Assembly: GCA_032718475.1 (NCBI GenBank)
Contig: JAUCBJ010006781.1
Location: 94,371-158,370, forward strand
From: Nemertoderma westbladi
Taxonomy: Eukaryota > Animalia > Xenacoelomorpha
DNA: 64,000 nt
Direction: 5' to 3'
Both the position numbers and the translations under genes were made by a program. Of the stretch, positions 4,753-39,806 are shown in pieces (position 1 is the stretch's first letter; each line of letters begins with the position of its first letter). The notes below the pieces were generated by a model. The model searched no databases. It worked only from the letters and a program-made list of their open reading frames with translations, and had not been told where the DNA came from.

Positions 4753-4825
4753 TATCCCTGCAATTCCGCTGTATTTTGAACGTCATTATCTATCTCTATC
4801 TATCGTAATCAACTTTATCTTCCCT

Positions 4826-5231
4826 TCACCTTACGTACACTTTATTACACTGTATTTTTAACTTTATTTTTTCCAGTTCTGCATGGACTCCTGCGTTCTC
4901 CTTACGTACACCTTATGCCATTTTATTTTCAACTTTATTTTCTCCAGCTCTGCATGGACTCCTGTGTTCTCCTTGCGTACACCTTATGCCATTGTATTTT
5001 CAACTTTATTTTCTCCAGCTCTGCATGGACTGTTGCGTTCTCCATACATACACTTTATTCCACTGTATTTTCAACTTTATTTTCTCCAGTTCTGCATGGA
5101 CTCCTGTGTTCTCCTTACGTACACTTTATGCCACTGTATTTTCAACTTTATTTTCTCCAGTTCTGCATGGACTCCTGTGTTCTCCTTACGTACACCTTAT
5201 GCCATTGTATTTTCAACTTTATTTTCTCCAG
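4826..5231 (+). repeat. 71-bp tandem array of the SLC44 splice acceptor
   Basis: Pyrimidine tract + CCAG ends at 4876, 4947, 5018, 5089, 5160 and 5231 (71-bp spacing); each upstream AG is followed by TTCTGCATGGACTCCTG-like sequence resembling the exon start GTCTGCGTAGACGCTTGC. Confidence 0.93.
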
Positions 5232-7103
5232 GTCTGCGTAGACGCTTGCCCAAAGGACTACTGGATTGCCCTAACAGACATTCTAATGCAAAAAGTTGTC
5301 GCAACTTCAACTGTATTCTACGCCCAGTACTGCACAGAAACATTGGCTGCGAAAATAAGCAATCTGGAAACGCTAGTAGCAGAAGGAAAGTGTCCCGCAT
5401 ATATACTAAACAGCGAGGCCGTTCTAGGGAGATGCATACCAACGCTAATTAAAGATATACTAACATCAGGAGTTTCAACGGTTTATGAATTAAATAATGC
5501 GGAAATGACGGTGAAGACGTATCTACAAGCTCCAGGTGGATTCGAGATTGTCATCCCAGCTGGAACCGGAGGTTTATTCGAAAATATCGATGTTAACACG
5601 ATTCAACAGGCAGGAACAGCCCTAACTACTTTATTAGACTTTGAAGACATAACTGCGAAAATATTCAAAGACTTCGGCTCTTGTTGGCCTTGGATAGTGG
5701 GTTTGCTCACAATGGGTATGATTTTCGCTTTATTCTGGGTTATCATAATGCGTTGGATCGCGGGTATAGTTGTGTGGATCCAGCTGATAGCGCTGCTGTT
5801 AGGTTTGGTGTTCGGGTTGTGGTACACGTGGGAGCAATACATAGCCGTATCAGCTAGCACTGTAAACGCAACAGCGTTCGCATTCTCGACAGACTTCTCT
5901 TACTACACAGGTCGAACGGAGTTCTGGCTAGCTTGCGCGATCACAGATGGTGTCATCCTTATCATTCTAATAATTTTACTTCTGTTTCTTTGCAAAAGAA
6001 TTCGACTCGGAATACAAATGATTAAAGAAGGAAGTAAGGCGATTTCCGCTATGATGTTAACCTTATTCTACCCCTTGTTTGGTTATCTTCTTATATTGAT
6101 AATTTTCGGAGGGTTTGGTGTAATAGCTGTCTATCTAGCTAGCAATGGAACACCGTACTATACTATAAGTTCCACCGACACAAACATAGCTGATACTACT
6201 TGCGATCCCGCGACATTCTCGCCGGCAAACACCGGAGATACATGTATGTTCAAGAACTACGGGGGTGATCCAAACATATTTCGTCTTCAAATCTACAATC
6301 TTTTCGCTTTGTTCTGGAATATGAATTTTGTAATGGCTTTCACTCAAGTTTCTTTAGCAGGCGCTTTCGCTTCTTGGTTCTGGGCTTTCGTTAAGCCAGA
6401 CGATGTCCCTCTATTCCCACTCCTTTACGCCCAAGGGAGGGCGTTAAGATATCATCTGGGATCCTTGGCATTCGGTAGTCTTATCATTGCGATTGTTCAA
6501 ATGATTCGAGTTATTCTAGAATACATTGAGTTCAAAGTTAAAGACAATGATAATATCATTGCGAAGTTCGTATTGAAATGTTTGAAATGTTGTTTTTGGT
6601 GTCTTGAAAAGATTATACGTTTTCTCACAAAGAACGCCTACATAATGATAGCAGTTCATGGAAAGAATTTCTGCCGTTCTGCTAAAGATGCGTTTTTTCT
6701 TCTTCTAAGAAATATAGTAAGAGTAGCGGTTCTCAACGGAATTACAGGGTTTCTATTGCTGATCGGGAAACTCGTTGTTACGGCAGCGATTGGAGTTCTA
6801 AGTTTCTTTTGTTTCAGCGGCCAGATTAAGATTCCGTATTACAAGGTCGGAGTTGTTCCTCTTAATTACTACTACGTTCCAATGATAGTTGTTATTATCG
6901 GAACCTACGTGATCGCCTCAATGTTCTTTAGTGTCTATGATATGGCGATAGATACGCTATTTCTATGTTTTTTGGAAGACATGGAGCGGAATGATGGAAG
7001 TCCTGAGAAACCGTATTTTATGTCGAAAAGTTTGATGAGCCTAGCAGGAAAGAAAAACAAAAAAGAAAAAAAGAAAAAAGAAAAGGAACAGAAAACTGAT
7101 TAA
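5232..7103 (+). CDS. Choline transporter-like protein (SLC44A2/4/5-like), last coding exon of about 623 codons; upstream exons lie outside the window
   Basis: Starts VCVDACP after TTTTCTCCAG; multi-TM protein with SLC44 motifs AGAFASWFW, RYHLGSLAFGSLIIAIVQ, KCCFWCLEK, KNAYIMIAVHGKNFC, DTLFLCFLED..RNDGS.EKPYFMS; TAA at 7101-7103. Confidence 0.96.
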   Translation, partial: VCVDACPKDYWIALTDILMQKVVATSTVFYAQYCTETLAAKISNLETLVAEGKCPAYILNSEAVLGRCIPTLIKDILTSGVSTVYELNNAEMTVKTYLQAPGGFEIVIPAGTGGLFENIDVNTIQQAGTALTTLLDFEDITAKIFKDFGSCWPWIVGLLTMGMIFALFWVIIMRWIAGIVVWIQLIALLLGLVFGLWYTWEQYIAVSASTVNATAFAFSTDFSYYTGRTEFWLACAITDGVILIILIILLLFLCKRIRLGIQMIKEGSKAISAMMLTLFYPLFGYLLILIIFGGFGVIAVYLASNGTPYYTISSTDTNIADTTCDPATFSPANTGDTCMFKNYGGDPNIFRLQIYNLFALFWNMNFVMAFTQVSLAGAFASWFWAFVKPDDVPLFPLLYAQGRALRYHLGSLAFGSLIIAIVQMIRVILEYIEFKVKDNDNIIAKFVLKCLKCCFWCLEKIIRFLTKNAYIMIAVHGKNFCRSAKDAFFLLLRNIVRVAVLNGITGFLLLIGKLVVTAAIGVLSFFCFSGQIKIPYYKVGVVPLNYYYVPMIVVIIGTYVIASMFFSVYDMAIDTLFLCFLEDMERNDGSPEKPYFMSKSLMSLAGKKNKKEKKKKEKEQKTD

Positions 7104-7344: not shown

Positions 7345-8878
7345 ACAAAAGTAAACAATTACACAAGTGAACAAGTACATAAGTGAACTAGTAAAATAGT
7401 GAACAAGTAAACTAGTACACAAGTGAACAAGTACAAAAGTGAACTAGTGAACAAGTAAACTAGTACACAAGTGAACAAGTACATAAGGGAACTAGTAAAT
7501 AAGTGAACAATTAAACTAGTACCCAAGTGAACAAGTACATAAGTGAACTAGTAAACAAGTGAGCAAGTAAACTAGTACACACGTGAACAAGTACAAAAGT
7601 GAACTAGTAAACAAGTGAACAAGTAAACTAGTACACAAGTGAACAAGTACAAAAGTGAACTAGTAAACAAGTGAGCAAGTAAACTAGTACACAAGTGAAC
7701 AAGTACAAAAGTGAACTAGTAAACAAGTGAACAAGTAAACTAGTACACAAGTGAACAAGTACATAAGTGAACTAGTAAACAAGTGAACAAGTAAACTAGT
7801 ACACAAGTGAACAAGTACATAAGTGAACTAGTAAAATAGTGAACAATTAAACTAGTACACAAGTGAACAAGTACATAAGTGAACTAGTAAAATAGTGAAC
7901 AATTAAACTAGTACCCAAGTGTTAAAGTACATAAAGTGAACTAGTAAACAAGTGAACAAGTAAACTAGTACACAAGTGAACAAGTACATAAGTGAACTAG
8001 TAAACAAGTGAACAAGTAAACTAGTACACAAGTGAACAAGTACATAAGTGAACTAGTAAACAAGTGAACAAGTAAACTAGTACACAAGTGAACAAGTACA
8101 TAAGTGAACTAGTAAAAAAGTGAACAATTAAACTAGTACCCAAGTGAACAAGTACATAAAGTGAAATAGTAAAAAAGTGAACAATTAAACTAGTACCCAA
8201 GTGAACAAGTACATAAGTGAACTAGTAAATAAGTGAACAATTAAACTAGTACACAAGTGAACAAGTACATAAGTGAACTAGTAAAAATGTGAACATTTAA
8301 ACTAGTACACAAGTGAACAATTAAACTAGTACACAAGTGAACAATTAAACTAGTACACAAGTGAACAAGTACATAAGTGAACTAGTAAAAAATTGAACAA
8401 TTAAACTAGTACACAAGTGAACAAGTACATAAGTGAACTAGTAAAAAAGTGAACATTTAAACTAGTAAACAAGTGAACAAGTAAACTAGTTCACAAGTGA
8501 ACAAGTAAACTAGTTCACAAGTGAACAAGTACATAAGTGAACAAGTAAACTAGTACACAAGTGAACAAGTACACAAGTAAACTAGTAAAAAGGTGAACAT
8601 TTAAACTAGTACACAAGTGAACAAGTACATAAGTGAACTAGTAAAAAAGTGAACAATTAAACTAGTACACAAGTGAACAAGTACACTAGTTCACAAGTGA
8701 ACAAGTAAACTAGTACACAAGTGAACAAGTACATAAGTGAACAAGTAAACTAGTACACAAGTGAACAAGTACATAAGAGAACTAATAAAAAAGTGAACAA
8801 TTAAACTAGTACACAAATAAAACAAGTAAACTAGTACACAAGTGAACAACAAAAAAAGTACACAAGTGAAACAAGTAC
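7345..8878. repeat. AT-rich satellite of 8-bp subunits (AAGTGAAC/AAGTAAAC/TAGTACAC/AAGTACAT) organised as a 56-bp higher-order unit
   Basis: Seven-octamer unit AAGTGAAC AAGTAAAC TAGTACAC AAGTGAAC AAGTACAT AAGTGAAC TAGTAAAC repeated, starting about 240 bp after the SLC44 stop. Confidence 0.93.
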
Positions 8879-11810: not shown

Positions 11811-12878
11811 CATATATACTTGTAAAGTACTTTACAGTGTTATTATCCTCGTATCAGTACTAGCACTCACTCGCTATGTTCTTTCTTGTAACAAACAACT
11901 CGGATTAGAACATAGAAACTATAATTAAAGTGCTACTTTTTTCCCGGTATGTATATAGTTATCATGAATTTATTCCAAAATTGTAACATTACTCAACGCC
12001 GTTAATATTAACAACGAGTTTTGTTATTTAGCACTTTACAAGTACAGTAGTACTAGTTAGTCCATTACAACCGGTACATTTAGTGATATAATATTATGTT
12101 GTAATGTCCCAATAGAGCGACTTTACAGTGCACCCGTTCAATGTAAGTGAATCTTTGGGATCGCCATGGTTACCACATAAACAAAAGTTGGTATTTATTA
12201 TTAATTGCCTGACATGACAGCCAGATAGGTCTACTGCATTACCTACTGGTAGGCGGGGTATAGCTATTAATAACCAGTAGCTATAAACTATTAACATGGC
12301 TCCAAACGCCACCATAAATATAAGCTAACTTATTTATAACATAATTTATGTCATTTTTACATTTATTTATACAGCAACTAATATAATTTGTGCAGTTTCT
12401 ATCACTTATAATGTATATGTACAATAATTTCGTAATGTTAAAATTTTGGAATAAAACTACATACATACTTGTTGCAAAGTACTTTACAGTGTTCTGATCC
12501 TCGTGGCTTTATTTTCACTCACTCACTAACGTTCGTTCGTGTAACAAAGCCACTCGAATCATCACACTGTGAAGTGCTACTTTACACACAACTATGTAAA
12601 TAGTTTTTATTTACAAATATTTTTTTCGTACAATAAAACCCTTTAAATTAATTTTTCACAAAATTGGTATTATATATATATAAATCTTGAGTGAATAAAA
12701 ACCGTTAAATATGCAAATGGATTGTGAAACGAATTTTGCAGCAAAAATTAAGGAAAAAAGAACTGCCTTATTATTTATTAATTGCCACGAACATATTTAC
12801 AATATTAATTTAATTTATTTTTCTCTTTTCTATTTATTTATTTTTATACTAAATATTATTTATATCAATTTTGATTGA

Positions 12879-13023
12879 TTATTTGGTTGATATGTCTCCC
12901 CTGACCACATCCGTCGGTGCATTGTATTGTAACCATGACAACTGCATTCCTCTCTTGAACTGCTCGAAGAGAACAAACATACAAATATTCCAGGTCCCCA
13001 AACGCATAAACGACGGCATAAAC
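12879..13023 (-). CDS. Uncoupling protein (UCP2/3-like, SLC25), last coding exon
   Basis: TTTCCAG|G TTT ATG CCG; encodes (G)FMPSFMRLGTWNICMFVLFEQFKR...ISTK*, matching the UCP C-terminal helix; phase 2 agrees with the upstream exon. Confidence 0.92.
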
Positions 13024-15000
13024 CTGGAAATAAAGTAAACAATGACATAAACCTGGAAATAAAGTAAACAATGACATAAACCTGGAAATAAAGTAAACAA
13101 TGACATAAACCTGGAAATAAAGTAAACAATGACATAAAGCTAGGAAATAAAGTAAACAATGACATAAACCTGGAAATAAAGTAAACAATGACATAAACCT
13201 GGAAATAAAGTAAACAATGACATAAAGCTAGGAAATAAAGTAAACAATGACATAAAGCTAGGAAATAAAGTAAACAATGACATAAACCTGGAAATAAAGT
13301 AAACAATGACATAAACCTGGAAATAAAGTAAACAATGACATAAACCTGGAAATAAAGTAAACAATGACATAAACCTGGAAATAAAGTAAACAATGACATA
13401 AACCTGGAAATAAAGTAAACAATGACATAAACCTGGAAATAAAGTAAACAATGACATAAACATGGAAATAAAGTAAACAATGACATAAACCTGGAAATAA
13501 AGTAAACAATGACATAAACCTGGAAATAAAGTAAACAATGACATAAACCTGGAAATAAAGTAAACAATGACATAAACCTGGAAATAAAGTAAACAATGAC
13601 ATAAACCTGGAAATAAAGTAAACAATGACATAAACCTGGAAATAAAGTAAACAATGACATAAACCTGGAAATAAAGTAAACAATGACATAAACCTGGAAA
13701 TAAAGTAAACAATGACATAAACCTGGAAATAAAGTAAACAATGACATAAAGCTAGGAAATAAAGTAAACAATGACATAAACCTGGAAATAAAGTAAACAA
13801 TGACATAAACCTGGAAATAAAGTGAACAATGACATAAACCTGGAAATAAAGTAAACAATGACATAAACCTGGAAATAAAGTAAACAATGACATAAACCTG
13901 GAAATAAAGTTAACAATGACATAAACCTGGAAATAAAGTAAACAATGACATAAACCTGGAAATAAAGTAAACAATGACATAAACCTGGAAATAAAGTAAA
14001 CAATGACATAAACCTGGAAATAAAGTAAACAATGACATAAACCTGGAAATAAAGTAAACAATGACATAAACCTGGAAATAAAGTAAACAATGACATAAAC
14101 CTGGAAATAAAGTAAACAATGACATAAACCTGGAAATAAAGTAAACAATGACATAAACCTGGAAATAAAGTAAACAATGACATAAACCTGGAAATAAAGT
14201 AAACAATGACATAAACCTGGAAATAAAGTAAACAATGACATAAACCTGGAAATAAAGTAAACAATGACATATACCTGGAAATAAAGTAAACAATGACATA
14301 AACATGGAAATAAAGTAAACAATGACATAAACCTGGAAATAAAGTAAACAATGACATAAACCTGGAAATAAAGTAAACAATGACATAAACCTGGAAATAA
14401 AGTAAACAATGACATAAACCTGGAAATAAAGTAAACAATGACATAAACCTGGAAATAAAGTAAACAATGACATAAACCTGGAAATAAAGTGAACAATGAC
14501 ATAAACCTGGAAATAAAGTGAACAATGACATAAACCTGGAAATAAAGTAAACAATGACATAAACCTGGAAATAAAGTAAACAATGACATAAACCTGGAAA
14601 TAAAGTAAACAATGACATAAACCTGGAAATAAAGTAAACAATGACATAAACCTGGAAATAAAGTAAACAATGACATAAACCTGGAAATAAAGTAAACAAT
14701 GACATAAACCTGGAAATAAAGTAAACAATGACATAAAGCTAGGAAATAAAGTAAACAATGACATAAACCTGGAAATAAAGTAAACAATGACATAAACCTG
14801 GAAATAAAGTAAACAATGACATAAACCTGGAAATAAAGTAAACAATGACATAAACCTGGAAATAAAGTAAACAATGACATAAACCTGGAAATAAACCTGG
14901 AAATAAAGTAAACAATGACATAAACCTGGAAATAAAGTAAACAATGACATAAACCTGGAAATAAAGTAAACAATGACATAAAGCTAGGAAATAAAGTGAA
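13015..15000 (-). repeat. 29-bp tandem array (about 68 copies) of the UCP last-exon acceptor junction
   Basis: Minus-strand unit GTTTATGTCATTGTTTACTTTATTTCCAG; the real exon starts GTTTATGCCGTCGTTTA. Degenerate copies continue to about 15160 and at about 18850-18895. Confidence 0.96.
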
Positions 15001-15209: not shown

Positions 15210-18200
15210 ATAAATTCCCGGCTTACGCCCCGGTGGCTATATTCACTTAACCGCAAAATAAAATGTTCGTGCACTGGTTAAAAGAAGAACAATATGTGAC
15301 AGAGGGTAGTATATGAATTAAAAATATTTAAGGAAGATGCCAAATCATGACTTTAAGATTAATATAGATTACCATATTATATGCCATAACGTTCCATTAC
15401 TATACAATATCTATTATTATCGCGTATCTATTTATTAACGAATATATGAAAAACCCCGTCACTTGTAAACAAAATAGGATAGTGTACAGGTAAATTATTG
15501 CACAAATGTAAAAAATTAAACAATTTATAATATATAGAGCGATAGTGTAATAAAATCATAGAGCGCGTTATATAATAACGTTCAACTAAATAAATGATTA
15601 TATACTTTTTAAACAAAAATTAACGATCATATTACGATCATTACAATTAAAGTCGAAAATAGTGTCATAAAATATCAGTCACTTAGTTATTTTTTATGGT
15701 AATTAATCTAAATAAGAATCAAATAGTAACTGTAATAGTTAGTAACAAGAAAAAGTGAGGCTTAATAAAAATATTTATAATTCGATTAAATTGTATCAGA
15801 AAATAAATAAAATATGAAACAAGCACGCATACATGTACTGTATGTTATGATGGATGCTAGATGCACAAACTGTTGTATATATCTATACCAATATACCAAC
15901 TATAAAATAATAATAACAATATCATTAACAATATATATATATATATTAATCTCATAGATTATATGATAAAAAGAAGACTTTATGGTTAGAAACGGTGTCT
16001 AAATCAGTCTGTAAAAGTTTGATGTGTAGGTTTAGTCTAGCCCAAAGAACGATAATATTGTAGTATGTTTGGATGTATGGTCATTATTGCAGTTGTTTAG
16101 GATTGATCGGAAATAAGAGCTATGAAACTTTTCTTTGAAGGTTAGGGGGATGTTTCCAGCTTTAGTTCTGACCTTTGCTCCTTTTAACACCTTCTTCACA
16201 CAGTATTGTGAGGTAGCAATACTAGTGAGTGTCGGGAGACCTTCTTGCCACGATAAAAGTTCATGGGGTGGTGCGTCCAGTGGTTCAGCTATTTCTGATT
16301 GTGGGGACATTGAACACGCATCTATAGTTGCATAGTCTGTACTTTCATCAGTATCACTCTCAAAGGTAAATTTACTGCTCCTGCTCTTCTTTTTGTAACG
16401 TTTCGACTTTTTCTTTTTTGACTTTTTGTTGCTGTTTTTGTTATTATTCAAGATAGTTTCTTTGGTGATACCTTCATTCCTTAGTTGTGTGTTGTCTGAG
16501 TGAGTAGTCTCTGAGTCTGAGTCATTGTGATCTTTTCCCTGCATGGGATTGGTCGAATTACAGCAAAATCTACAGGTAGATGTAGGTTGTTGTGTCTGTA
16601 ACTCGTCTAGGCCGTTTTCCATGGCATCCACCTTATTTTGTGTTACTCGCAATTGGCTGTTTATTGTTTTCACTTCGACTTGCAGGTTGGCTACAAGGTC
16701 CACAAGTTGGAAAAGGCTGAAGGTGTCGAGGGTTCCTATATGCACCCTTTTCTTAAAAATGGGTGTAATTGCGGAGCTTTCAGCAACCAGTGCAAACTCA
16801 GCCACGTCAGCTGCTAGTTCATCAATGGAGCGACGGTTTATTGCACTTATGTTGAGGCTTGGAGTGCTCCCCAGAATATTTGTCTTTATATGTTCAAAGA
16901 GCATCTTTTGTATGTTATTTAAAGATTCAAGGCCTATAGGTAATAGTGCCCGAATAAGTATGTCTTTAGGGTTCCTTAGAATATTCGAGTCGATTAGAAT
17001 TTTTAATACATCCAGTGCTGTGTTTGCTTTTCGCAATTTTGTGTGGCTCCCTTGGAAGCCAGCGTTGTGGATTTCATTCTGGGTGGATTCGTTTTGAGAT
17101 CGGGTGTGTGGGGCATGGTGACCCTGGGATTTATTTGTTGGTACTCGTCCAGTTGTGTTCTCTGCAGATTTAGTTTTTTGTTGTTTGCCGGTCTTTATTC
17201 CAAAGTTTGGGCCAGTGTTTAAGAATCTTTCATCTTGAGGTGCATTTGGTTTCATTACCGATTTTCTTTCTATGGAAGTTGCCATCCAAACTCTACCCTG
17301 TGCACATTCGTTATTTGTCATTTTCTTGGCAAAAACGTTATTTTCTTTAGGGAAAGCAAGCATATAGGAATACACACACACGAAAATCCCACAGTCGACG
17401 TTATTTGTTTGCTTTGGGAATTGAGACATGTTTGGGGCTTGTATTGGGCGCCATTGGTCAAAGTTTAGACTTGAGGGTAAAGTTTTCGTAGAGGGGGTCA
17501 GGTTATCAATTGTGTTAAGGACGTTGCATAGTGCTTTTGTTGTGTTTGTGTAATATGGGTTTCCCATTGGACAGAGAGTATAAATTTCTTTGTCCTTAGG
17601 GATAGCGACATGTAATACAAAGTGCCCTATTGGAGTATTAGAATATTGTCTACACTCTGGGATTAGCAAAATTTCTATGTCTGGTCGTTTGTATCTACTA
17701 CTGGCAAATTTGACCAAGGAAAACATATCACTTAGTGGTGTACTGAGCTTGGTCGAAAACTCTGTAGGTAAAATGCCTACACGAAAATTTGTGCTTTCCT
17801 CTAGGAGGTAGAGAACGGAGTTTACTAGTGCATCGTTTATACATGTACCTGGGCTCAACAAAATCATATCGTCCTTTGTAAGTTTGGTTAAAATATTCTC
17901 CATGTTTGTTGGCTTGCACTTTGTATTTAATAGAGTCAAATATTTCTCACTAGCCAGGAAACGTTTAATTTTAACTCGTTTTTGATCTTCATCACTGTTG
18001 TCTATCGGTGGGTGGTACGTTTCATACAAAAGTTCGATGGGATTGTGGTCGTCATCGCTTAGGAGATCATCTCGGTTCCTTGGCTTGATCTTCTCCGAAA
18101 CGTCACCTCTGTGTTCGGCGGATTCGGCCAGGTTCCGTGGGTTTATCTTCTCCGAATCGTCTCCACGGTGTTCGGCAGAATCAGCCCGGTCCAGTGGATT

Positions 18201-18812
18201 TACCTTCTCCGAAATGTCACCGTGGTGTTCGGCGTGATTGATCCGATCCTGTGGGTTTATCTTTTCAAGATCGTCGCTGCGGTGTTTGGCGGAATTGACC
18301 TGGTTCCATGGGTTGATCTTCTCTGAATCATTGCCATCGTGTTCGGGGGAAATGGCACGGTTCCGTGGGTTTGTCTTCTCAGAAAGTTCTCCACGGTGAT
18401 CGGTGGAATCGGCACAAATCTGTTGGTTTATCTTCGCCAAATCGTCACCGCAGTGTTCGGCTGAAACAGCCTGCTCTCGTGGGTTTATCTTCTCCAAATC
18501 GCCAATGCGTCGTTGTTCGGCAGAAACGTCCCAGTCCTGTGAGTTTATCTTCTCTGAATCGCCGCTACGGTGTTCGGCAGAATCGGCCCTGTCCCGTGGG
18601 TTTATCCTCTCTGAATCGTCACCACGGTGTTCAGTGGAAACGGCCCGGTTTTGTGGGTTTATCTTCTTTGTGTTGGTGCCTGGTGGTGGTGTTCTCGGTA
18701 TCTCCCATTTAACCACCAGAGGCGATTTCATCGTGTGGCTTAATGTAGTAATGCCGTAATGTCGTAAGTAGTTATATTTAAACAGGATCGTTACAGCGCA
18801 TCAATTAGTAGA
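15185..18812 (-). mobile_element. Polyadenylated single-ORF retroposon (or retrocopy) in a UCP intron
   Basis: T35 run at 15171-15205 (A-tail on minus); candidate TSD TA+T14 at 15169-15184 and 18813-18828 followed by AA (TTTT/AA site); degenerate 29-mer copies on both sides. Confidence 0.7.
16032..18731 (-). CDS. 899-aa intronless protein: about 20-aa N-terminal repeats, Ulp1/SENP (peptidase C48)-like domain, coiled-coil region resembling non-LTR ORF1, basic/Ser tail
   Basis: Motifs CINDALVNSVLYLL, GHFVLHV (His) and PKQTNNVDCGIFVC (oxyanion Gln, catalytic Cys); repeats of the form EKINPRDRADSAEHRGDDS; heptads LVDLVANLQVEVKTINSQLRVTQNKVDAMENGL. Confidence 0.85.
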   Translation of the reverse strand: MKSPLVVKWEIPRTPPPGTNTKKINPQNRAVSTEHRGDDSERINPRDRADSAEHRSGDSEKINSQDWDVSAEQRRIGDLEKINPREQAVSAEHCGDDLAKINQQICADSTDHRGELSEKTNPRNRAISPEHDGNDSEKINPWNQVNSAKHRSDDLEKINPQDRINHAEHHGDISEKVNPLDRADSAEHRGDDSEKINPRNLAESAEHRGDVSEKIKPRNRDDLLSDDDHNPIELLYETYHPPIDNSDEDQKRVKIKRFLASEKYLTLLNTKCKPTNMENILTKLTKDDMILLSPGTCINDALVNSVLYLLEESTNFRVGILPTEFSTKLSTPLSDMFSLVKFASSRYKRPDIEILLIPECRQYSNTPIGHFVLHVAIPKDKEIYTLCPMGNPYYTNTTKALCNVLNTIDNLTPSTKTLPSSLNFDQWRPIQAPNMSQFPKQTNNVDCGIFVCVYSYMLAFPKENNVFAKKMTNNECAQGRVWMATSIERKSVMKPNAPQDERFLNTGPNFGIKTGKQQKTKSAENTTGRVPTNKSQGHHAPHTRSQNESTQNEIHNAGFQGSHTKLRKANTALDVLKILIDSNILRNPKDILIRALLPIGLESLNNIQKMLFEHIKTNILGSTPSLNISAINRRSIDELAADVAEFALVAESSAITPIFKKRVHIGTLDTFSLFQLVDLVANLQVEVKTINSQLRVTQNKVDAMENGLDELQTQQPTSTCRFCCNSTNPMQGKDHNDSDSETTHSDNTQLRNEGITKETILNNNKNSNKKSKKKKSKRYKKKSRSSKFTFESDTDESTDYATIDACSMSPQSEIAEPLDAPPHELLSWQEGLPTLTSIATSQYCVKKVLKGAKVRTKAGNIPLTFKEKFHSSYFRSILNNCNNDHTSKHTTILSFFGLD

Positions 18813-19100: not shown

Positions 19101-19383
19101 CCTTTGTAAAACGTAAGGAGGCCGTTTTCTTTAAACATTTTCACGGTGCAGTCTATCAAACCGCGATACTGCCCGGGGGACGAATTCATGTAACGAGTTT
19201 TAATAACATCAACGGGAGACGCGACGCAAGTAGTAAACAGCCCTGCTGAGAAAGCCGAGACGAAATGGCAGGGAAAGTTATCCGACATGAGTTTCCGCTT
19301 CAGAATGGCCTCCTTTACGAGATCGTAACACACCAATTCGCAGCAGTTAACAACAGCGTTACGGGCCATATTGGGTGTCGTAC
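19101..19383 (-). CDS. UCP-like internal exon
   Basis: TTACAG|GT ACG ACA CCC; encodes (G)[24 protein letters not shown]...[14 protein letters not shown]...FYKG; donor GG|GTCAGT; 283 nt, phase 1 to phase 2. Confidence 0.95.
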
Positions 19384-22300
19384 CTGTAATAATTACCAAA
19401 ATAGTTACATGTATGTCGTACCTGTAATAAATACCAAAATAGTTACCATGTGTGACGTACCTGTAATAAATACCAAAATAGTTACCCTGTGTGTCGTACC
19501 TGTAATAAATACCAAAATAATTACCATGTGTGTCGTACCTGTAATAATTACCAAAATAGTTACCATGTGTGTCGTACCTGTAATAATTACCAAAATAATT
19601 ACCATGTGTGTCGTACCTGTAACAATTACCAAAATAGTTACCATGTGTGTCGTACCTGTAATAATTACCAAAATAGTTACATGTATGTCGTACCTGTAAT
19701 AAATACCAAAATAGTTACCATGTGTGACGTACCTGTAATAATTACCAAAATAGTTACCATGTGTGTCGTACCTGTAACAATTACCAAAATAATTACCATC
19801 TGTGTCGTACCTGTAACAATTATCAAAATAGTTACCATGTGTGACGTACCTGTAATAAATACCAAAATAGTTACCCTGTGTGTCGTACCTGTAATAATTA
19901 CCAAAATAATTACCATGTGTGTCGTACCTGTAACAATTACCAAAATAGTTACCATGTGTGTCGTACCTGTAATAATTACCAAAATAGTTACATGTATGTC
20001 GTACCTGTAATAAATACCAAAATAGTTACCATGTGTGTCGTACCTGTAATAATTACCAAAATAGTTACCATGTGTGTCGTACCTGTAATAATTACCAAAA
20101 TAGTTACATGTATGTCGTACCTGTAATAAATACCAAAATAGTTACCATGTGTGTCGTACCTGTAATAATTACCAAAATAGTTACCATGTGTGTCGTACCT
20201 GTAACAATTACCAAAATAGTTACCATGTGTGTCGTACCTGTAACAATTACCAAAATAATTACCATCTGTGTCGTACCTGTAACAATTACCAAAATAGTTA
20301 CCATGTGTGTCGTACCTGCAATAATTACCAAAATAGTTAACATGTGTGTCGTACCTGTAACAATTACCAAAATAGTTACATGTGTGTCGTACCTGTAATA
20401 ATTACCAAAATAGTTACATGTGTGTCGTACCTGTAATAATTACCAAAATAATTACCATGTGTGTCGTACCTGTAACAATTACCAAAATAGTTACCATGTG
20501 TGTCGTACCTGTAATAATTACCAAAATAATTACCATGTGTGTCGTACCTGTAACAATTACCAAAATAGTTACATGTGTGTCGTACCTGTAATAATTACCA
20601 AAATAATTACCATGTGTGTCGTACCTGTAACAATTACCAAAATAGTTACCATGTGTGTCGTACCTGTAACAATTACCAAAATAGTTACCATGTGTGTCGT
20701 ACCTGTAATAATTACCAAAATAGTTAACATGTGTGTCGTACCTGTAAAAATTACCAAAATAGTTACATGTGTGTCGTACCTGTAATAATTACCAAAATAG
20801 TTACCATGTGTGTCGTACCTGTAATAAATACCAAAATAATTACCATGTGTGTCGTACCTGTAACAATTACCAAAATAGTTAGCATGTGTGTCGTACCTGT
20901 AATAATTACCAAAATAATTACCATCTGTGTCGTACCTGTAACAATTATCAAAATAGTTACCATGTGTGTCGTACCTGTAATAATTACCAAAATAGTTACC
21001 ATGTGTGTTGTACCAGTAACAATTACCAAAATAGTTACCATGTGTGTCGTACCTGTAACAATTACCAAAATAGTTACCCTGTGTGTCGTACCTGTAACAA
21101 TTACCAAAATAGTTACCATGTGTGTCGTACCTGTAATAAATACCAAAATAGTTACCATGTGTGACGTACCTGTAATAAATACCAAAATAATTACCATGTG
21201 TGTCGTACCTGTAACAATTACCAAAATAGTTACCATGTGTGTCGTACCTGTAATAATTACCAAAATAGTTACCATGTGTGTCGTACCTGTAACAATTACC
21301 AAAATAGTTACCATGTGTGTCGTACCTGTAATAATTACCAAAATAGTTACCATGTGTGTCGTACCTGTAACAATTACCAAAATAGTTACCATGTGTGTCG
21401 TACCTTGTATTCTTGTATTCTTGTATATATATTTAGTGATTTAAAATTCACACGGTAGAACTCGTAGAGCACACCAAATTAAGTACATAAACCTAAAAAC
21501 TGCAGTATATCAAATAATTAAGTACGGGCCTACAGTTGTAAAAATTACGCAAATAAGGCACAAAATGCACATAACTAATAATAAGAAAAAAAACATTACA
21601 GTAAAAATATACATTGTATACAAATTGTGCAAAAACTGGCTAATTCTTCTGTTTAAATGGACAATGCAATGAAAGAAATGTAGTCCATTTAATTTATTTT
21701 AATACTTGTACCTTAGTTAGGGAGTTTGACTGGATAGGTCTCGAGTCAGTGTATCCAGGCGAGCCGGGACAATCTGGGACGGTGAAAAGATATGCATCAA
21801 GATGCTTTTTAAAAGTCTCCAGTGCGCAGCATGTCAAGTCTCTTATATGTTTTGGGATGGTGTTAAATAATTTAGGTCCAATAACACAAAAACTGTTGTC
21901 TATAAGAGAGGAGACGCGACATGTAGCCTTACTTGCAAGGGACGGTATGGTACAAAGTCGACCTCTGCGGATGTTTTTTGTAGATTTAATTTTATAGGTT
22001 AAATCTGAAATATTTGGAACTCTATTTTCGATAATTTTCCATGTATATATTATTATATACCTTTCTCTCCTCCGCTGTACCTGTAACAATTACCAAAATA
22101 GTTACCATGTGTGTCGTACCTGTAATAAATACCAAAATAATTACCATGTGTGTCGTACCTGTAACAATTATCAAAATAGTTACCATGTGTGTCGTACCTG
22201 TAACAATTACCAAAATAGTTACCATGTGTGTCGTACCTGTAATAAATACCAAAATAGTTACCATGTGTGTCGTACCTGTAATAAATACCAAAATAATTAC

Positions 22301-25300
22301 CATGTGTGTCGTACCTGTAACAATTACCAAAATAGTTACCATGTGTGTCGTACCTGTAATAATTACCAAAATAATTACCATGTGTGTCGTACCTGTAACA
22401 ATTACCAAAATAGTTACCATGTGTGTCGTACCTGTAATAAATACCAAAATAGTTACCATGTGTGACGTACCTGTAATAAATACCAAAATAATTACCATGT
22501 GTGTCGTACCTGTAACAATTACCAAAATAGTTATCATGTGTGTCGTACCTGTAATAATTACCAAAATAGTTACCATGTGTGTCGAACCTGTAACAATTAC
22601 CAAAATAGTTACCATGTGTGTCGTACCTGTAATAATTACCAAAATAGTTACCATGTGTGTCGTACCTGTAATAATTACCAAAATAGTTACCATGTGTGTC
22701 GTACCTGTAACAATTACCAAAATAGTTACCATGTGTGTCGTACCTGTAACAATTACCAAAATAGTTACCATGTGTGTCGTACCTGTAATAATTACCAAAA
22801 TAGTTACCATGTGTGTCGTACCTGTAACAATTACCAAAATAGTTACCATGTGTGTCGTACCTGTAATAATTACCAAAATAGTTACCATGTGTGTCGTACC
22901 TGTAATAATTACCAAAATAGTTACCATGTGTGTCGTACCTGTAATAATTACCAAAATAGTTACCATGTGTGTCGTACCTGTAATAAATACCAAAATAATT
23001 ACCATGTGTGTCGTACCTGTAACAATTACCAAAATAGTTATCATGTGTGTCGTACCTGTAATAATTACCAAAATAGTTACCATGTGTGTCGAACCTGTAA
23101 CAATTACCAAAATAGTTACCATGTGTGTCGTACCTGTAATAATTACCAAAATAGTTACCATGTGTGTCGTACCTGTAATAATTACCAAAATAGTTACCAT
23201 GTGTGTCGTACCTGTAACAATTACCAAAATAGTTACCATGTGTGTCGTACCTGTAATAATTACCAAAATAGTTACCATGTGTGTCGTACCTGTAATAAAT
23301 ACCAAAATAATTACCATGTGTGTCGTACCTGTAACAATTACCAAAATAGTTACCATGTGTGTCGTACCTGTAATAATTACCAAAATAATTACCATGTGTG
23401 TCGTACCTGTAACAATTACCAAAATAGTTACCATGTGTGTCGTACCTGTAATAATTACCAAAATAGTTACCATGTGTGTCGTACCTGTAACAATTACCAA
23501 AATAGTTACCATGTGTGTCGTACCTGTAATAATTACCAAAATAGTTACCATGTGTGTCGTACCTGTAATAATTACCAAAATAGTTACCATGTGTGTCGTA
23601 CCTGTAACAATTACCAAAATAGTTACCATGTGTGTCGTACCTGTAATAATTACCAAAATAGTTACCATGTGTGTCGTACCTGTAATAATTACCAAAATAA
23701 TTACCATGTGTGTCGTACCTGTAACAATTACCAAAATAGTTACCATGTGTGTCGTACCTGTAATAATTACCAAAATAGTTACCATGTGTGTCGTACCTGT
23801 AACAATTACCAAAATAGTTACCATGTGTGTCGTACCTGTAATAATTACCAAAATAGTTACCATGTGTGTCGTACCTGTAATAAATACCAAAATAATTACC
23901 ATGTGTGTCGTACCTGTAACAATTACCAAAATAGTTACCATGTGTGTCGTACCTGTAATAATTACCAAAATAGTTACCATGTGTGTCGTACCTGTAATAA
24001 ATACCAAAATAATTACCATGTGTGTCGTACCTGTAACAATTACCAAAATAGTTACCATGTGTGTCGTACCTGTAATAATTACCAAAATAATTACCATGTG
24101 TGTCGTACCTGTAATAATTACCAAAATAGTTACCATGTGTGTCGTACCTGTAATAATTACCAAAATAGTTACCATGTGTGTCGTACCTGTAACAATTACC
24201 AAAATAGTTACCATGTGTGTCGTACCTGTAATAATTACCAAAATAGTTACCATGTGTGTCGTACCTGTAATAAATACCAAAATAATTACCATGTGTGTCG
24301 TACCTGTAACAATTACCAAAATAGTTACCATGTGTGTCGTACCTGTAATAATTACCAAAATAATTACCATGTGTGTCGTACCTGTAACAATTACCAAAAT
24401 AGTTACCATGTGTGTCGTACCTGTAACAATTACCAAAATAGTTACCATGTGTGTCGTACCTGTAATAATTACCAAAATAGTTACCATGTGTGTCGTACCT
24501 GTAACAATTACCAAAATAGTTACCATGTGTGTCGTACCTGTAACAATTACCAAAATAGTTACCATGTGTGTCGTACCTGTAATAATTACCAAAATAGTTA
24601 CCATGTGTGTCGTACCTGTAATAAATACCAAAATAATTACCATGTGTGTCGTACCTGTAACAATTACCAAAATAGTTACCATGTGTGTCGTACCTGTAAT
24701 AATTACCAAAATAATTACCATGTGTGTCGTACCTGTAACAATTACCAAAATAGTTACCATGTGTGTCGTACCTGTAATAATTACCAAAATAGTTACCATG
24801 TGTGTTGTACCAGTAACAATTACCAAAATAGTTACCATGTGTGTCGTACCTGTAACAATTACCAAAATAGTTACCCTGTGTGTCGTACCTGTAATAATTA
24901 CCAAAATAATTACCATGTGTGTTGTACCAGTAACAATTACCAAAATAGTTACCATGTGTGACGTACCTGTAATAATTACCAAAATAGTTACATGTATGTC
25001 GTACCTGTAATAAATACCAAAATAGTTACATGTGTGTCGTACCTGTAATAATTACCAAAATAATTACCATGTGTGTCGTACCTGTAACAATTACCAAAAT
25101 AGTTACCATGTGTGTCGTACCTGTAACAATTACCAAAATAGTTACCATGTGTGTCGTACCTGTAATAATTACCAAAATAGTTAACATGTGTGTCGTACCT
25201 GTAACAATTACCAAAATAGTTACCATGTGTGTCGTACCTGTAACAATTACCAAAATAGTTACCATGTGTGTCGTACCTGTAACAATTACCAAAATAGTTA

Positions 25301-27675
25301 CCATGTGTGTCGTACCTGTAACAATTACCAAAATAGTTACCATGTGTGTCGTACCTGTAACAATTACCAAAATAATTACCATGTGTGTCGTACCTGTAAC
25401 AATTACCAAAATAGTTACCATGTGTGTCGTACCTGTAACAATTACCAAAATAGTTACCATGTGTGTCGTACCTGTAATAATTACCAAAATAGTTACCATG
25501 TGTGTTGTACCAGTAACAATTACCAAAATAGTTACCATGTGTGTCGTACCTGTAACAATTACCAAAATAGTTACCCTGTGTGTCGTACCTGTAATAATTA
25601 CCAAAATAGTTACATGTATGTCGTACCTGTAATAATTACCAAAATAGTTACCATGTGTGTTGTACCAGTAACAATTACCAAAATAGTTACCATGTGTGTC
25701 GTACCTGTAATAATTACCAAAATAGTTACCATGTGTGTTGTACCAGTAACAATTACCAAAATAGTTACATGTGTGACGTACCTGTAACAATTACCAAAAT
25801 AGTTACCCTGTGTGTCGTACCTGTAATAATTACCAAAATAATTACCATCTGTGTCGTACCTGTAACAATTACCAAAATAGTTACCATGTGTGTCGTACCT
25901 GTAATAATTACCAAAATAATTACCATGTGTGTCGTACCTGTAACAATTACCAAAATAGTTACCATGTGTGTCGTACCTGTAATAATTACCAAAATAGTTA
26001 CCATGTGTGTTGTACCAGTAACAATTACCAAAATAGTTACCATGTGTGTCGTACCTGTAACAATTACCAAAATAATTACCATGTGTGTCGTACCTGTAAC
26101 AATTACCAAAATAGTTACATGTGTGTCGTACCTGTAATAATTACCAAAATAATTACCATGTGTGTCGTACCTGTAACAATTACCAAAATAGTTACCATGT
26201 GTGTCGTACCTGTAACAATTACCAAAATAGTTACCCTGTGTGTCGTACCTGTAATAATTACCAAAATAATTACCATGTGTGTCGTACCTGTAACAATTAC
26301 CAAAATAATTACCATGTGTGTCGTACCTGTAACAATTACCAAAATAGTTACCATGTGTGTCGTACCTGTAACAATTACCAAAATAGTTACCCTGTGTGTC
26401 GTACCTGTAATAATTACCAAAATAATTACCATGTGTGTCGTACCTGTAACAATTACCAAAATAATTACCATGTGTGTCGTACCTGTAACAATTACCAAAA
26501 TAGTTACATGTGTGTCGTACCTGTAATAATTACCAAAATAGTTACCATGTGTGTCGTACCTGTAATAATTACCAAAATAGTTACCATGTGTGTCGTACCT
26601 GTAATAATTACCAAAATAATTACCATGTGTGTCGTACCTGTAACAATTACCAAAATAGTTACCATGTGTGTCGTACCTGTAACAATTACCAAAATAGTTA
26701 CCCTGTGTGTCGTACCTGTAATAATTACCAAAATAATTACCATGTGTGTCGTACCTGTAATAATTACCAAAATAGTTACCATGTGTGTCGTACCTGTAAT
26801 AATTACCAAAATAGTTACCATGTGTGTCGTACCTGTAATAATTACCAAAATAGTTACCATGTGTGTCGTACCTGTAATAATTACCAAAATAGTTACCATG
26901 TGTGTCGTACCTGTAATAATTACCAAAATAATTACCATGTGTGTCGTACCTGTAATAATTACCAAAATAATTACCATGTGTGTCGTACCTGTAATAATTA
27001 CCAAAATAGTTACCCTGTGTGTCGTACCTGTAATAATTACCAAAATAATTACCATGTGTGTCGTACCTGTAACAATTACCAAAATAATTACCATGTGTGT
27101 CGTACCTGTAACAATTACCAAAATAGTTACCATGTGTGTCGTACCTGTAACAATTACCAAAATAGTTACCCTGTGTGTCGTACCTGTAATAATTACCAAA
27201 ATAATTACCATGTGTGTCGTACCTGTAACAATTACCAAAATAATTACCATGTGTGTCGTACCTGTAACAATTACCAAAATAGTTACATGTGTGTCGTACC
27301 TGTAACAATTACCAAAATAGTTACCCTGTGTGTCGTACCTGTAATAATTACCAAAATAATTACCATGTGTGTCGTACCTGTAATAATTACCAAAATAGTT
27401 ACCATGTGTGTCGTACCTGTAATAATTACCAAAATAGTTACCATGTGTGTCGTACCTGTAATAATTACCAAAATAGTTACCATGTGTGTCGTACCTGTAA
27501 TAATTACCAAAATAGTTACCATGTGTGTCGTACCTGTAATAATTACCAAAATAATTACCATGTGTGTCGTACCTGTAATAATTACCAAAATAATTACCAT
27601 GTGTGTCGTACCTGTAATAATTACCAAAATAGTTACCCTGTGTGTCGTACCTGTAATAATTACCAAAATAGTTAA
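19374..27675 (-). repeat. 39-bp tandem array (about 195 copies) of the UCP acceptor junction, filling almost the whole intron
   Basis: Minus-strand unit GTACGACACACATGGTAACTATTTTGGTAATTATTACAG; the real exon begins GTACGACACCCAATATGG. Interrupted at 21406-22076. Confidence 0.97.
21406..22076 (-). mobile_element. 5'-truncated LINE (CR1/L2 group) inserted in the 39-bp array
   Basis: ORF2 C-terminal signature RRRERYIIIYTWKI...GPKLFNTIP..IR...FKKHLD..L..VPD.P; 3' tail of ATACAAGA repeats; GTACCT duplicated at 21400-21405 and 22077-22082. Confidence 0.85.
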
Positions 27676-27760
27676 TATTCATATTGTGTGGCGGACTTTT
27701 TGTACATGTATCAAAATAATTACAGAATGTCGCCGGATTATATTCTGGAACTTTACTAAC

Positions 27761-27964
27761 CCTTCCACAAGCCTCTTCGTATACCTTCGTCTCGAGCTAT
27801 TGAGGAATAGGCCTGCCAGGTTTTACGGTACCGTCTAGGCTGTCCAGGCACAAAAGCCTGAAACCGAACTTTAACAACGTCAGTTGGCTGAGCGAATAGG
27901 ACAGCTGAAGAGCCGGTAGTGACGCCGGCTAGAATGCGGATAAGTATGTCGACGTTCTTCAATT
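27761..27964 (-). CDS. UCP-like internal exon
   Basis: TTTTCTAG|AA TTG; encodes [28 protein letters not shown]...[10 protein letters not shown] with the carrier signature PxDxxKxR; donor G|GTTAGT; 204 nt, phase 1 to phase 1. Confidence 0.95.
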
Positions 27965-28760: not shown

Positions 28761-28888
28761 CTTTATTATTATTCAATTGGGTTAACTTGGTTGTGTAGAT
28801 TTCCTTAACTCGGTCATATAAACCAATTCGTATCGAGGCGAAACACATTTGTCGATGGAGCCCAGCTATTAAACCGTTATACATTCCT
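28761..28888 (-). CDS. UCP-like internal exon (not in the ORF track)
   Basis: GTTACAG|A GGA ATG TAT AAC; translates [32 protein letters not shown], close to the UCP2 [24 protein letters not shown] motif; donor AAG|GTAATA; phase 1 matches the next exon. Confidence 0.93.
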
Positions 28889-32885: not shown

Positions 32886-32902
32886 CACAAGGCTACTGCC
32901 GG

Positions 32903-34803
32903 CCCTACTGCGCTCCATTAGATCTATTCTCGCGTCCTGAGCCGAGCCAACACGCCCTACTGAGCTCCATTAGATCTATTTTCGAGCACAGAACCGAGCC
33001 AACACGCCCTATTGCGCTCCATTAGATCTATTCTCGCATCCTGAGCCGACCCAACACGCCCTACTGCGCTCCATTAGATCTATTCTCGCGTCCTGAGCCG
33101 AGCCAACACGCCCTACTGAGCTCCATTAGATCTATTTTCGAGCACAGAACCGAGACAACACGCCCTATTGCGCTCCATTAGATCTATTCTCGCATCCTGA
33201 GCCGACCCAACACGCCCTACTGCGCTCCATTAGATCTATTCTCGCGTCCTGAGCCGAGCCAACACGCCCTACTGAGCTCCATTAGATCTATTTTCGAGCA
33301 CAGAACCGAGACAACACGCCCTATTGCGCTCCATTAGATCTATTCTCGCATCCTGAGCCGACCCAACACGCCCTACTGTGCTCCATTAGATCTATTCTCG
33401 CGTCCTGAGCCGAGCCAACACGCCCTACTGAGCTCCATTAGATCTATTTTCGAGCACAGAACCGAGCCAACACGCCCTATTGCGCTCCATTAGATCTATT
33501 CTCGCGTCCTGAGCCGATCCAACATACCCTACTGCGCTCCATTAGATCTATTCTCGCATCCTAAGCCGACCCAACACGCCCTACTGCGCTCCATTAGATC
33601 TATTCTCGCGTCCTGAGCCGACCCAACACGCCCTACTGCGCTCCATTAGATCTATTCTCGCATCCTGAGCCGATCCAACATACCCTACTGCGCTCCATTA
33701 GATCTATTCTCGCATCCTGAGCCGATCCAACACGCCCTACTGCACTCCATTAGATCTATTCTCGCGTCCTGAGCCGATCCAACATACCCTACTGCGCTCC
33801 ATTAGATCTATTCTCGCATCCTGAGCCGATCCAACATACCCTACTGCGCTCCATTAGATCTATACTCGCATCCTGAGCCGACCCCACACGCCCTACTGCG
33901 CTCCATTAGATCTATTCTCGCATCCTGAGCCGAGCCAACACGCCCTACTGCGCTCCATTAGATATATTTTCGAGCACAGAACCGAGCCAACACGCCCTAT
34001 TGCGCTCCATTAGATCTATTCTCGCGTCCTGAGCCGATCCAACATACCCTACTGCGCTCCATTAGATCTATTCTCGCATCCTGAACCGAGCCAACACGCC
34101 CTACTGCGCTCCATTAGATCTATTTTCGAGCACAGAACCGAGCCAACACGCCCTATTGCGCTCCATTAGATCTATTCTCGCGTCCTGAGCCGAGCCAACA
34201 CGCCCTATTGCGCTCCATTAGATCTATTCTCGCATCCTGAGCCGACCCCACACGCCCTGCTGCGCTCCATTAGATCTATTCTCGCGTCCTGAGTCGAGCC
34301 AACACGCCATACTGCGCTCCATTAGATATATTTTCGAGCACAGAACCGAGCCAACACGCCCTATTGCGCTCCATTAGATCTATTCTCGCATCCTGAGCCG
34401 ACCCAACACGCCCTACTGCGCTCCATTAGATCTATTCTCGCGTCCTGAGTCGAGCCAACACGCCATACTGCGCTCCATTAGATCTATACTCGCATCCTGA
34501 GCCGACCCCACACGCCCTACTGCGCTCGATTAGATCTATTCTCGCATCCTGAGCCGACCCAACACGCCCTACTGCGCTCCATTAGATCTATTCTCGCGTC
34601 CTGAGCCGATCCAACATACCCTACTGCGCTCCATTAGATCTATTCTCGCATCCTGAGCCGACCCAACACGCCCTATTGCGCTCCATTAGATCTATTCTCG
34701 CGTCCTGAGCCGAGCCAACACGCCCTACTGCGCTCCATTAGATCTATTCTCGCATCCTGAGCCGACCCAACACGCCCTACTGAGATCCATTATATCTATT
34801 CTC
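32903..34803. repeat. 52-bp minisatellite (about 36 copies) with a local 3-unit higher-order pattern
   Basis: Unit CCCTACTGCGCTCCATTAGATCTATTCTCGCGTCCTGAGCCGAGCCAACACG; the variant TTTCGAGCACAGAACC recurs every 156 bp in the first part. Confidence 0.96.
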
Positions 34804-34875
34804 GTTCAAATATTTCAGGTCTATATATATGAATGCTCACGAACAGAAACTATGTCCTTTTCATGTGATGCTCAC

Positions 34876-37519: not shown

Positions 37520-38140
37520 GCCTGTCAGACTCTCTACCTGTCGGACTCTCTACCTGTCGGACTGTCTACCTGTCGGACTCTCTACCTGTCGGACTGTCTA
37601 CCTGTCAGTTGTCAAACTATCTACCAGTCGGAATGTCTCCCTGTCAGACTGCTATCTACCTGTCGGAATGTCTCCCTGTCAGACTGTCTACCTGTCGGAC
37701 TGTCTACCTGTCGGACTGTCTCCCTGTCAGACTGTATACCTGTCGGACTGTCTACCTGTCGGACTGTCTACCTGCCAGACTATCTATCTGTCGGACTGTC
37801 TATCGGTCACACTATCTACCTGTCACACTGTCCTCCTGTCGGACTGTCTACCTATCAGACTGTCTATCTGTTAGACCGTCTATCTATCAAACTGTCTACC
37901 TGTCACACTGTCTCCCTAAACCTCTAAAAGACTGTCCACCTGTCAGTGTTTCACTATCTACCTGTCCTATCAGACTGTCTACCTACCAGACTCTACCAGA
38001 CTGCCAACCTGTCGGACCCGTCTACCTATCCGACCGTATACCTGTCAGACTGTCTCCCTGACAGACTGCCTATCCGCCAGACTGTCTACCTGACAGACAA
38101 TCTCCCTGTCAAACTGGCTATCTGTCAGACTGTCTAACTG
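37520..38140. repeat. Degenerate 16-bp minisatellite (CTGTCTACCTGTCGGA)n inside the zinc-finger intron
   Basis: Tandem units visible directly, decaying rightwards. Confidence 0.9.
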
Positions 38141-39806
38141 TCGTCTGATATTATGTCAATATCAATCTTAATGTGTGTGAGTGGGACTGAGCACATTTAT
38201 GGAAACCGCAACGGGAATAGCGTAATGGGTAAATTTAGGGATCATTACCGCAAGTAAACAGCTGGCCAATCGAGTTATTCCGAGAGAAATAAGATAAAAA
38301 GAATCAGTACACCAAACATTCAAAATATTCTAAGCGACTGGCCTTTCTACACCAGGTCTTCTAACTGAGAGGAGATCACAAACAGATTATAGTTAATGTC
38401 TCAATTTGTTTTCAGCATTTTATCTTCAAATTGTGGAAACCATTGGGGATACCATTATAATGGTGGTTTCTACTTTGATTCGCAAATATAAATTGCCGTT
38501 AATTTTGTTTGCTTGGACATTTTGTAATTGGATAATCTGCCAAAAGTTCAATTTTGGTGAGAAAACCACACCATTTTTTTAATATTAAATTTTTTCGGTG
38601 CTACAGCTACCAACTTTAACTTCCTCTCCATATTATGCCTAATGCCTACTTACAAATTATATCCTGCTTATAGTCCTAATTGCACTACCGGTAATGTTAT
38701 TCTCATTCGAACCTCAGTGATCGAGTTAGTGGGTGTAAACACCTTCAAAGGTCAAAACAAAAGTCTACAAAACGTATAAGGCGGCTCAAACTGCAATTTA
38801 CCTTATCAATTCCAAATTAAAGCATTTTTACAAAATAAAACTTCCAGAGTGACCTTTCCGAATGAATAATAGCGTTATTCGATTCCAAATGATCCATTTA
38901 ATGGGAGGAAAGTGAAAAAAATAGAAAATGTGAAAAAATAGTAGATTTAGTATTTCTCTATATTTTGCACGAAAGAAGTCAGCAGGCTCAATTAAATTGT
39001 AATGTATTGATTGACTGAGCATGACTACCCATTATTTTCGAAAACTAATAGTTTTCTTTTGAGATTGTCTACCAGACACCCACTAAATCAATTGTCACTG
39101 TTATTGTTTCTCAAAGTTTATAAACGCCAAAGATCTGCTGTTGGGCGGAGTTCAAAGACTCTGTAGCCTGAATATAAACGCTCACAGTTAATTAGGTTAA
39201 ATAGTATTAGGAAAATGTTGGTGTTTCATAGCTCATGCACCACGTCAGAGGGACTCCTATTTTCTAAATAACAACTGCCTTTTTTCACAATACTTTTTAA
39301 GATTAACATGATTATTAGAACGTTCTCTGGAAACCCTAAAACAGTACTCTGCTAAACGATTATAATTATCTTACTAGCAAATATTCACAAACGTTATTAA
39401 TAATATAACCAAAACTACGTATGTTGTTTTTTTGCCCTATATTCCTGAGACTTTTAGCCTGACTGAATATAAGTACTGTAGTTGGTCATCACTGTCAAAA
39501 TGCAGAGTATATGGAAGTGAGAGTGGAAAGCGGAAGCTGAGCTGTTTAGCACCATTTGAAAAATAATATTTCTTAAAATTTTGTGATTTATAATTAGTTT
39601 TTAGATTTTTATTAGAAATGTATTTATTCAAAATTAAAAAAAAAAGATATATATATTTTAAGGACCATTTTTGTTACGCAAATTTTTCCTCGAATGATGA
39701 TTTTAAACTGCCAACGCAAAAATTATTATATTCTATTGTATTATAAAGACAGTTGGGTTGATTCCGGAACGGTTCCGAGCTGTTCCCACCGGAAACCGGA
39801 ACTAAC

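Follow-up and report, generated by a model that had tools for sequence, protein, structure and literature searches.

A UCP intron built from copies of its own acceptor junction: a very large mirage minisatellite, probably skipped by splicing to the last copy

How is the end of an intron found when the intron repeats its own acceptor nearly two hundred times? The question is raised by a 64,000-nucleotide (nt) stretch of Nemertoderma westbladi DNA (assembly GCA_032718475.1, contig JAUCBJ010006781.1, positions 94,371–158,370; hereafter the window), in which a gene for a UCP2-like mitochondrial carrier lies on the minus strand. One of its introns is a junction-spanning "mirage" minisatellite, that is, an array of tandem units that each cover the end of the intron and the start of the exon that follows, and it is a very large member of this known repeat class. 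With 187 near-identical acceptors ahead of the real one, the first of them 110 nt from the donor, the locus amounts to a natural experiment on acceptor choice. Our analysis of the sequence favors a simple answer, namely that this 195-copy minisatellite of the intron's own acceptor junction is probably skipped by one-step splicing to the last copy, through exon definition.

The array makes up 90% of the intron and consists of 195 units, 179 of them 39 nt long, 15 of 38 nt and one of 716 nt, which fall into 30 variants. At the internal junctions, 187 of the 195 read CAG/GT (the slash marks the splice junction), seven read CTG/GT and one AAG/GT. The single 716-nt unit contains a 677-nt insert with a frame matching the C-terminus of endonuclease/reverse-transcriptase proteins (102 matches, most with PF00078). 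A search of phage sequences with the insert returned no match and carries no information on it. A sequence-only reading that preceded this analysis had described the intron as built almost entirely from about 195 copies of the acceptor junction, which is borne out; it had taken every junction to be CAG/GT and had overlooked the insert. Its statement that each unit carries the branch-like motif GGTAAC does not hold, as 48 units have GGTAAT, 15 lack a G and six are changed in another way. The donor-like sites that it named in each unit are present, but it missed a third, TTG/GTAATT, of which there are 171 copies.

The unit itself is a composite of the host gene. It combines a decayed version of the ~26 nt at which the downstream exon begins, shortened by two small deletions, with the 20 nt that close the intron. 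Older copies of the same junction lie between the donor and the array. One, 46 nt long (27696–27651), aligns ungapped to the exon start, and the neighboring stretch 27759–27701 resembles a copy in a later stage of decay, a likeness equalled by 11 of 1000 shuffles. The first unit does begin at offset 110 from the donor (position 27650), as had been noted earlier, but only part of the segment before it would be ancestral; the proposal of a short ancestral intron stands. Within the array, units differ on average by 1.8 of 39 nt, 14 of the 39 positions are variable, the longest run of identical units is nine, and block duplications are visible in the string of variants. Diverged copies, block duplications and the small difference between units fit birth by duplication of the junction. 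A tandem duplication across the intron–exon boundary likely created the first unit, and the array would then have expanded through slippage or unequal crossing-over, its units evolving in concert, so that a short intron grew ~80-fold out of its own junction. Head-to-tail units that span a host-gene exon–intron boundary, a unit of minisatellite size (39 nt; reported mirage units measure 10–160 bp, PMC3087553), an array abutting the real exon, homogenized units and a diverged 5' edge together place the intron in the mirage class. A search of metagenome contigs with the 39-mer pattern gave no matches.

Two further mirages occur in the same window and differ in how far their decoys retain the GT; the sequence-only reading had overlooked both and had not recognized the repeat class. 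The next UCP intron holds an array with a 29-nt unit that is unrelated to the 39-mer. Among its 67 junctions, 59 are AG/GT, six, including the 5'-most, are TAG/CT, and two have lost the AG; older, decayed copies lie upstream, with a score that none of 1000 shuffles reaches. The third array precedes the terminal coding exon of a choline-transporter-like gene (SLC44/CTL), where decoy acceptors end at 4876, 4947, 5018, 5089 and 5160 and read AG/TT (three) or AG/CT (two), none having a GT. All five are strong acceptors, and all lie upstream of an intact 602-codon exon. Over its whole length this 71-nt unit aligns with the opening 96 nt of the exon, ending on an exonic CCAG. A whole-unit test of exon origin, whose scoring parameters were picked after the likeness had been noticed, was positive for the CTL unit (equalled by 1 of 300 shuffles and 1 of 141 other exon windows) and marginal for the UCP 39-mer (13 of 300 and 10 of 189); by the same test the 46-nt older copy (53 of 300 shuffles) and the 29-mer (268 of 300) gave no sign of exon derivation. 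The last 22 nt of the CTL unit have a higher pyrimidine content than their exonic source. The alignment suggests that an exon-derived copy may have become the working CTL acceptor, as in the duplication model of Rogers (PMC3443670, PMC4974935).

The CTL protein aligns with 47% identity over 100% of the query, its best Branchiostoma matches stand at 46–47%, and no near-identical protein was found, the best match reaching 48%. We also observed that SLC44/CTL is encoded here in a single 1.8-kb exon (5232–7040, plus strand). Vertebrate SLC44/CTL genes have many introns in the corresponding region, and the single exon suggests intron loss or a retroposed origin.

One-step splicing to the last 39-mer copy is favored because a full exon follows that copy only. 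Potential donors were scored by how well they match the 9-base consensus and by the energy of their duplex with the U1 5' end; both measures are crude and not species-trained. Sites with seven or more of nine matches were counted as donor-like. From the intact decoys, 187 in all, it is 14 nt (166 decoys), 13 nt (15) or 39 nt (6) to the nearest such site downstream; from the true acceptor it is 283 nt, and the site reached is the authentic donor. A decoy would therefore face a donor-like site within 13–39 nt and carry at most ~26 nt of decayed exon, so that it would define a sub-minimal exon that lacks enhancers and would stay silent, while the real acceptor would pair with its own donor. Exons of ≤51 nt are described as rare and less easily recognized (PMC4317164), and in all three arrays the stretches behind the decoys contain more T and less GC than the true exon. 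Occasional decoy use would yield frameshifted or stop-containing RNA: with the remainder retained, none of 188 AG-intact decoys gives an in-frame, stop-free product, so that splicing errors would likely be degraded. The CTL decoys are strong yet GT-less and precede an intact exon, hence the choice of the last copy apparently works without a regenerated donor; in the 29-mer and CTL arrays, that choice would fall to exon content and terminal-exon definition. The amphioxus mirages, too, are reported to leave splicing undisturbed (PMC3087553, PMC3902484). The 39-mer array is likely without function and tolerated. RNA structure was considered as a feature that might single out the true 39-mer acceptor and was rejected, the unpaired share there being 0.40 against 0.36 ± 0.11 in the decoys, 82 of 187 of which are more open.

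Several observations weigh against this answer. No donor-like site lies near the 29-mer and CTL decoys, which confines the close-donor argument to the 39-mer, and in RNA folding the decoys of both sister arrays are more accessible than the true acceptors (65 of 65 for the 29-mer). Under intron definition, the first 39-mer decoy, 110 nt from the donor, would be a natural partner for it. Arrays are found at three of three AG/GT acceptors and at none of the other three, which are non-GT (Fisher P=0.05 in a post hoc test on six sites), a bias that would not be expected from plain exon definition. Of two studies on human globin minigenes with duplicated sites, both cited in PMC1557585, one saw the proximal copy used and the other the reverse. 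In addition, a search for the N-terminal ~80 residues of UCP in the 35 kb upstream (28889–64000; hidden Markov model and tblastn) produced nothing convincing.

The short first segment and the bias toward AG/GT acceptors are also what would be expected if recursive (ratchet) splicing were the main route, the donor joining an early decoy (for example, by removal of the 110-nt first segment), the GT being regenerated, and re-splicing proceeding to a later unit or to the true acceptor. Juxtaposed AG/GT within the intron, the basic feature of a ratchet point, is present at 187 of 195 junctions, no unit has an intact AG with the GT lost, and short cryptic exons of the kind used by fly ratchet points (~50 nt; PMC8605326) are available in the array. 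As the earlier reading stated, use of a decoy would recreate a GT at the end of the same exon, and the junction sequences agree. The further proposal that re-splicing would correct such errors finds no support in the sequence. The regenerated donor matches 6/9 consensus positions with −5.0 kcal/mol, below all four authentic donors in the window (7/9, −5.9 to −7.7 kcal/mol), and among 715 internal GT sites it is beaten by 377 on consensus and by 423 on U1 duplex energy. Even CAG/GTACGA, which had been described as only a weak donor match, outscores it. Since the donor-like sites (7/9) at 13–39 nt downstream are stronger on these crude scores, a mis-splice would more likely leave 14, 26 or 39 nt than be cleanly corrected. 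In Drosophila, a ratchet donor outmatched by the donor of the cryptic exon is reported to lead to inclusion and not to clean removal, although not all cases are accounted for by relative strength (PMC8605326).

The GT is retained in all 195 units (the AG is lost in seven), which does not exceed what chance would give (P=0.40). The 29-mer regenerates a poorer site still (5/9, −3.5) and its first decoy is TAG/CT, while the CTL decoys have no GT at all; the GT-less decoys of these two arrays indicate that an array can persist without a ratchet. Fly ratchet points are described as having very strong acceptors and segments nearly all >1 kb (PMC6110457), against 10 of 17 pyrimidines and 39-nt spacing here. 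The regenerated site would also be present in correctly spliced mRNA and would need suppression there, such as repression by the exon junction complex (PMC6224609). On these grounds, recursion appears unlikely as the main route. A related idea, which we regard as doubtful, would have AG/GT gate the birth of acceptor mirages: only first copies that regenerate a donor would survive, via re-splicing; the 39-mer intron would still be spliced in this way, with the 110-nt segment removed before a jump over up to 194 decoys; older arrays would lose the GT after the exon copy decays; and an exon-derived copy would serve as the working CTL acceptor. There is a small chance that the regenerated donor matters at the birth of an array, and perhaps still in the 39-mer intron.

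The arrays might instead be free of splicing constraint, if the UCP locus were a 5'-truncated or recently dead duplicate. The missing N-terminus would fit, as would the presence in that upstream 35 kb of a C2H2 zinc-finger gene on the same strand as UCP (~41096–36122); the absent 5' exons may mean that the first intron is very long or that the locus is a truncated duplicate. Yet the four UCP exons, placed by tblastn and then by inspection of their boundaries, join into a single open frame that runs for 252 codons up to the stop, and the intron ends are canonical GT-AG. Of 57 homologues found, 44 full-length ones were compared; at 100 columns conserved in ≥90% of these, UCP is changed in 3, with the homologues themselves changed in 0–17, whereas the exon-start copies in the repeat show decay. 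The gene looks to be under constraint, the unrelated CTL gene has the same build, and a dead or truncated UCP seems rather improbable. An inflated copy number, with a far shorter true array, has to be considered because tandem arrays are prone to mis-assembly and, according to PMC3087553, one amphioxus mirage was mis-assembled; with 30 unit variants, identical runs of nine at most and a unique retrotransposon inside, such an error is very improbable. We give as little credence to the decoys being regulated alternative acceptors, 39-nt in-frame microexons (13-residue inserts) or a feed into nonsense-mediated decay that tunes the UCP level. Thirty-nine nt do equal 13 codons, the common units contain no stop when read in the UCP frame (long open reading frames), and in some genes human junction minisatellites use one or two pseudo-sites (PMC1557585); but 15 units are 38 nt long, none of the 12 exon-proximal decoys is in frame, neither 29 nor 71 nt, the lengths of the sister units, is divisible by three, and the unit sequence carries no signal of selection.

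No near-identical UCP protein was found (best match 71%), a tree of the 93-residue UCP exon with 44 of the 57 homologues put it into no well-supported group, and a search for related loci returned six with 59–71% identity, none with a long array and all too distant for dating it. Relative to homologues, the exon immediately before the array intron has a one-residue insertion (EGIRRGLWK, 27777–27762, minus strand). Inside the last UCP intron (16035–18800, minus strand) we noted a stop-to-stop frame of 922 codons that encodes a Ulp1/Peptidase_C48 domain, contains a 57-bp coding repeat and is probably transposon-borne.

The window as a whole is rich in repeats, nine long arrays occupying 35% of it. 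Array ends fall within 20 nt of placed acceptors (six sites) in 3 of 18 cases (P ~4e-5) and within that distance of the four donors in 0 of 18, and the genome appears prone to junction arrays. By eye, inverted 49-bp arrays and kb-scale dispersed duplicated segments were also spotted at 42333–42894 and 43500–52000, resembling non-autonomous DNA transposons.

Features of the window discussed in the text, with positions counted from its first nucleotide.
Feature	Position	Strand	Remarks
UCP array intron	19384..27760	-	8,377 nt; GT..AG; flanking exons continue one UCP reading frame
39-mer array	19384..27650	-	195 junction units (39/38 nt), 187 intact CAG/GT decoys
5' segment of array intron	27651..27760	-	110 nt; holds older copy 27696-27651 and probable decayed copy 27759-27701
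Non-long-terminal-repeat (non-LTR) retrotransposon end	21404..22080	-	677 nt; 5'-truncated; short-repeat tail; inserted at unit junction
UCP2-like exon, first one found (GMYNGLIAG...)	28761..28888	-	acceptor AG/AG, without array; tblastn
UCP exon ending ...LWK-G, phase 1	27761..27964	-	acceptor AG/AA, without array; donor AGG/GTTAGT
UCP exon, 283 nt	19101..19383	-	true acceptor CAG/GT, the repeat source; donor AGG/GTCAGT
Last UCP coding exon (FMPSFMRLG... to stop)	12877..13023	-	acceptor CAG/GT
Second mirage	13024..14983	-	29-nt unit x67; spans last UCP acceptor; older decayed copies ~15129-15050
Third mirage	4825..5231	+	five 71-nt units before choline-transporter-like exon
SLC44/CTL terminal coding exon	5232..7040	+	602 codons; Pfam PF04515; inferred true acceptor CAG/GT at 5231/5232
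Long tandem array, 13 bp	1-4758		no placed splice site
Long tandem array, 56 bp	7349-8877		no placed splice site
Long tandem array, 52 bp	32902-34804		no placed splice site
Long tandem array, 16 bp	37521-38142		no placed splice site
Long tandem array, 33 bp	57403-59447		no placed splice site

The main value of the 39-mer array is as a test substrate for acceptor choice, and the three arrays together indicate that a mirage-prone genome can occur outside the lancelets. Its closest counterparts are the amphioxus mirages of Adh3, troponin C, the globins BflGb6 and BflGb9, and PGBD5 (PMC3087553, PMC3902484), which likewise consist of tandem units spanning the 3' end of an intron and the 5' start of an exon. 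There, too, many but not all units keep AG/GT, several mirages occur per genome, and concerted evolution goes with diverged edges. The UCP array differs in scale, with 195 copies over 8.3 kb against 3–6 in BflGb6 and 2–7 in PGBD5, in that two consecutive introns are hit and a retrotransposon sits inside the array, and in apparently belonging to another lineage, given the 46–47% best CTL matches to Branchiostoma. A literature search found no paper on invertebrate acceptor minisatellites, although larger arrays may nonetheless be published. The repeat class is thus already known, the UCP array is larger than the examples compared, and no function is indicated.

Human variable number tandem repeats at splice junctions (F7 intron 7, IFI6/6-16, CBS intron 13, lamin B2 and PDGF; PMC1557585) share the repetition of identical pseudo-splice sites into the intron, with the exon-adjacent site mostly used; they repeat the donor in 5–25 copies, whereas the UCP array repeats the acceptor. 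Repeats can supply both kinds of site, as in UBC, where AGGT repeats are described as serving as donor and acceptor alike (PMC10809524). Drosophila ratchet points, as portrayed in PMC6110457 and PMC8605326, resemble the UCP units in combining a juxtaposed AG/GT with a downstream donor-like site, but they are few, conserved and separated by kilobases, their acceptors are very strong and their donor outcompetes that of the cryptic exon; the UCP array, in contrast, has tight spacing, a weak acceptor and a weaker regenerated donor. Duplication of AG/GT-bounded segments of the Rogers type (PMC3443670, PMC4974935) also gives rise to new splice sites, and the CTL unit, whose counterpart in the exon is a 96-nt segment that starts with GT and ends with CAG, follows that pattern; here, however, the copies extend the 3' end of an existing intron and create no new intron position.

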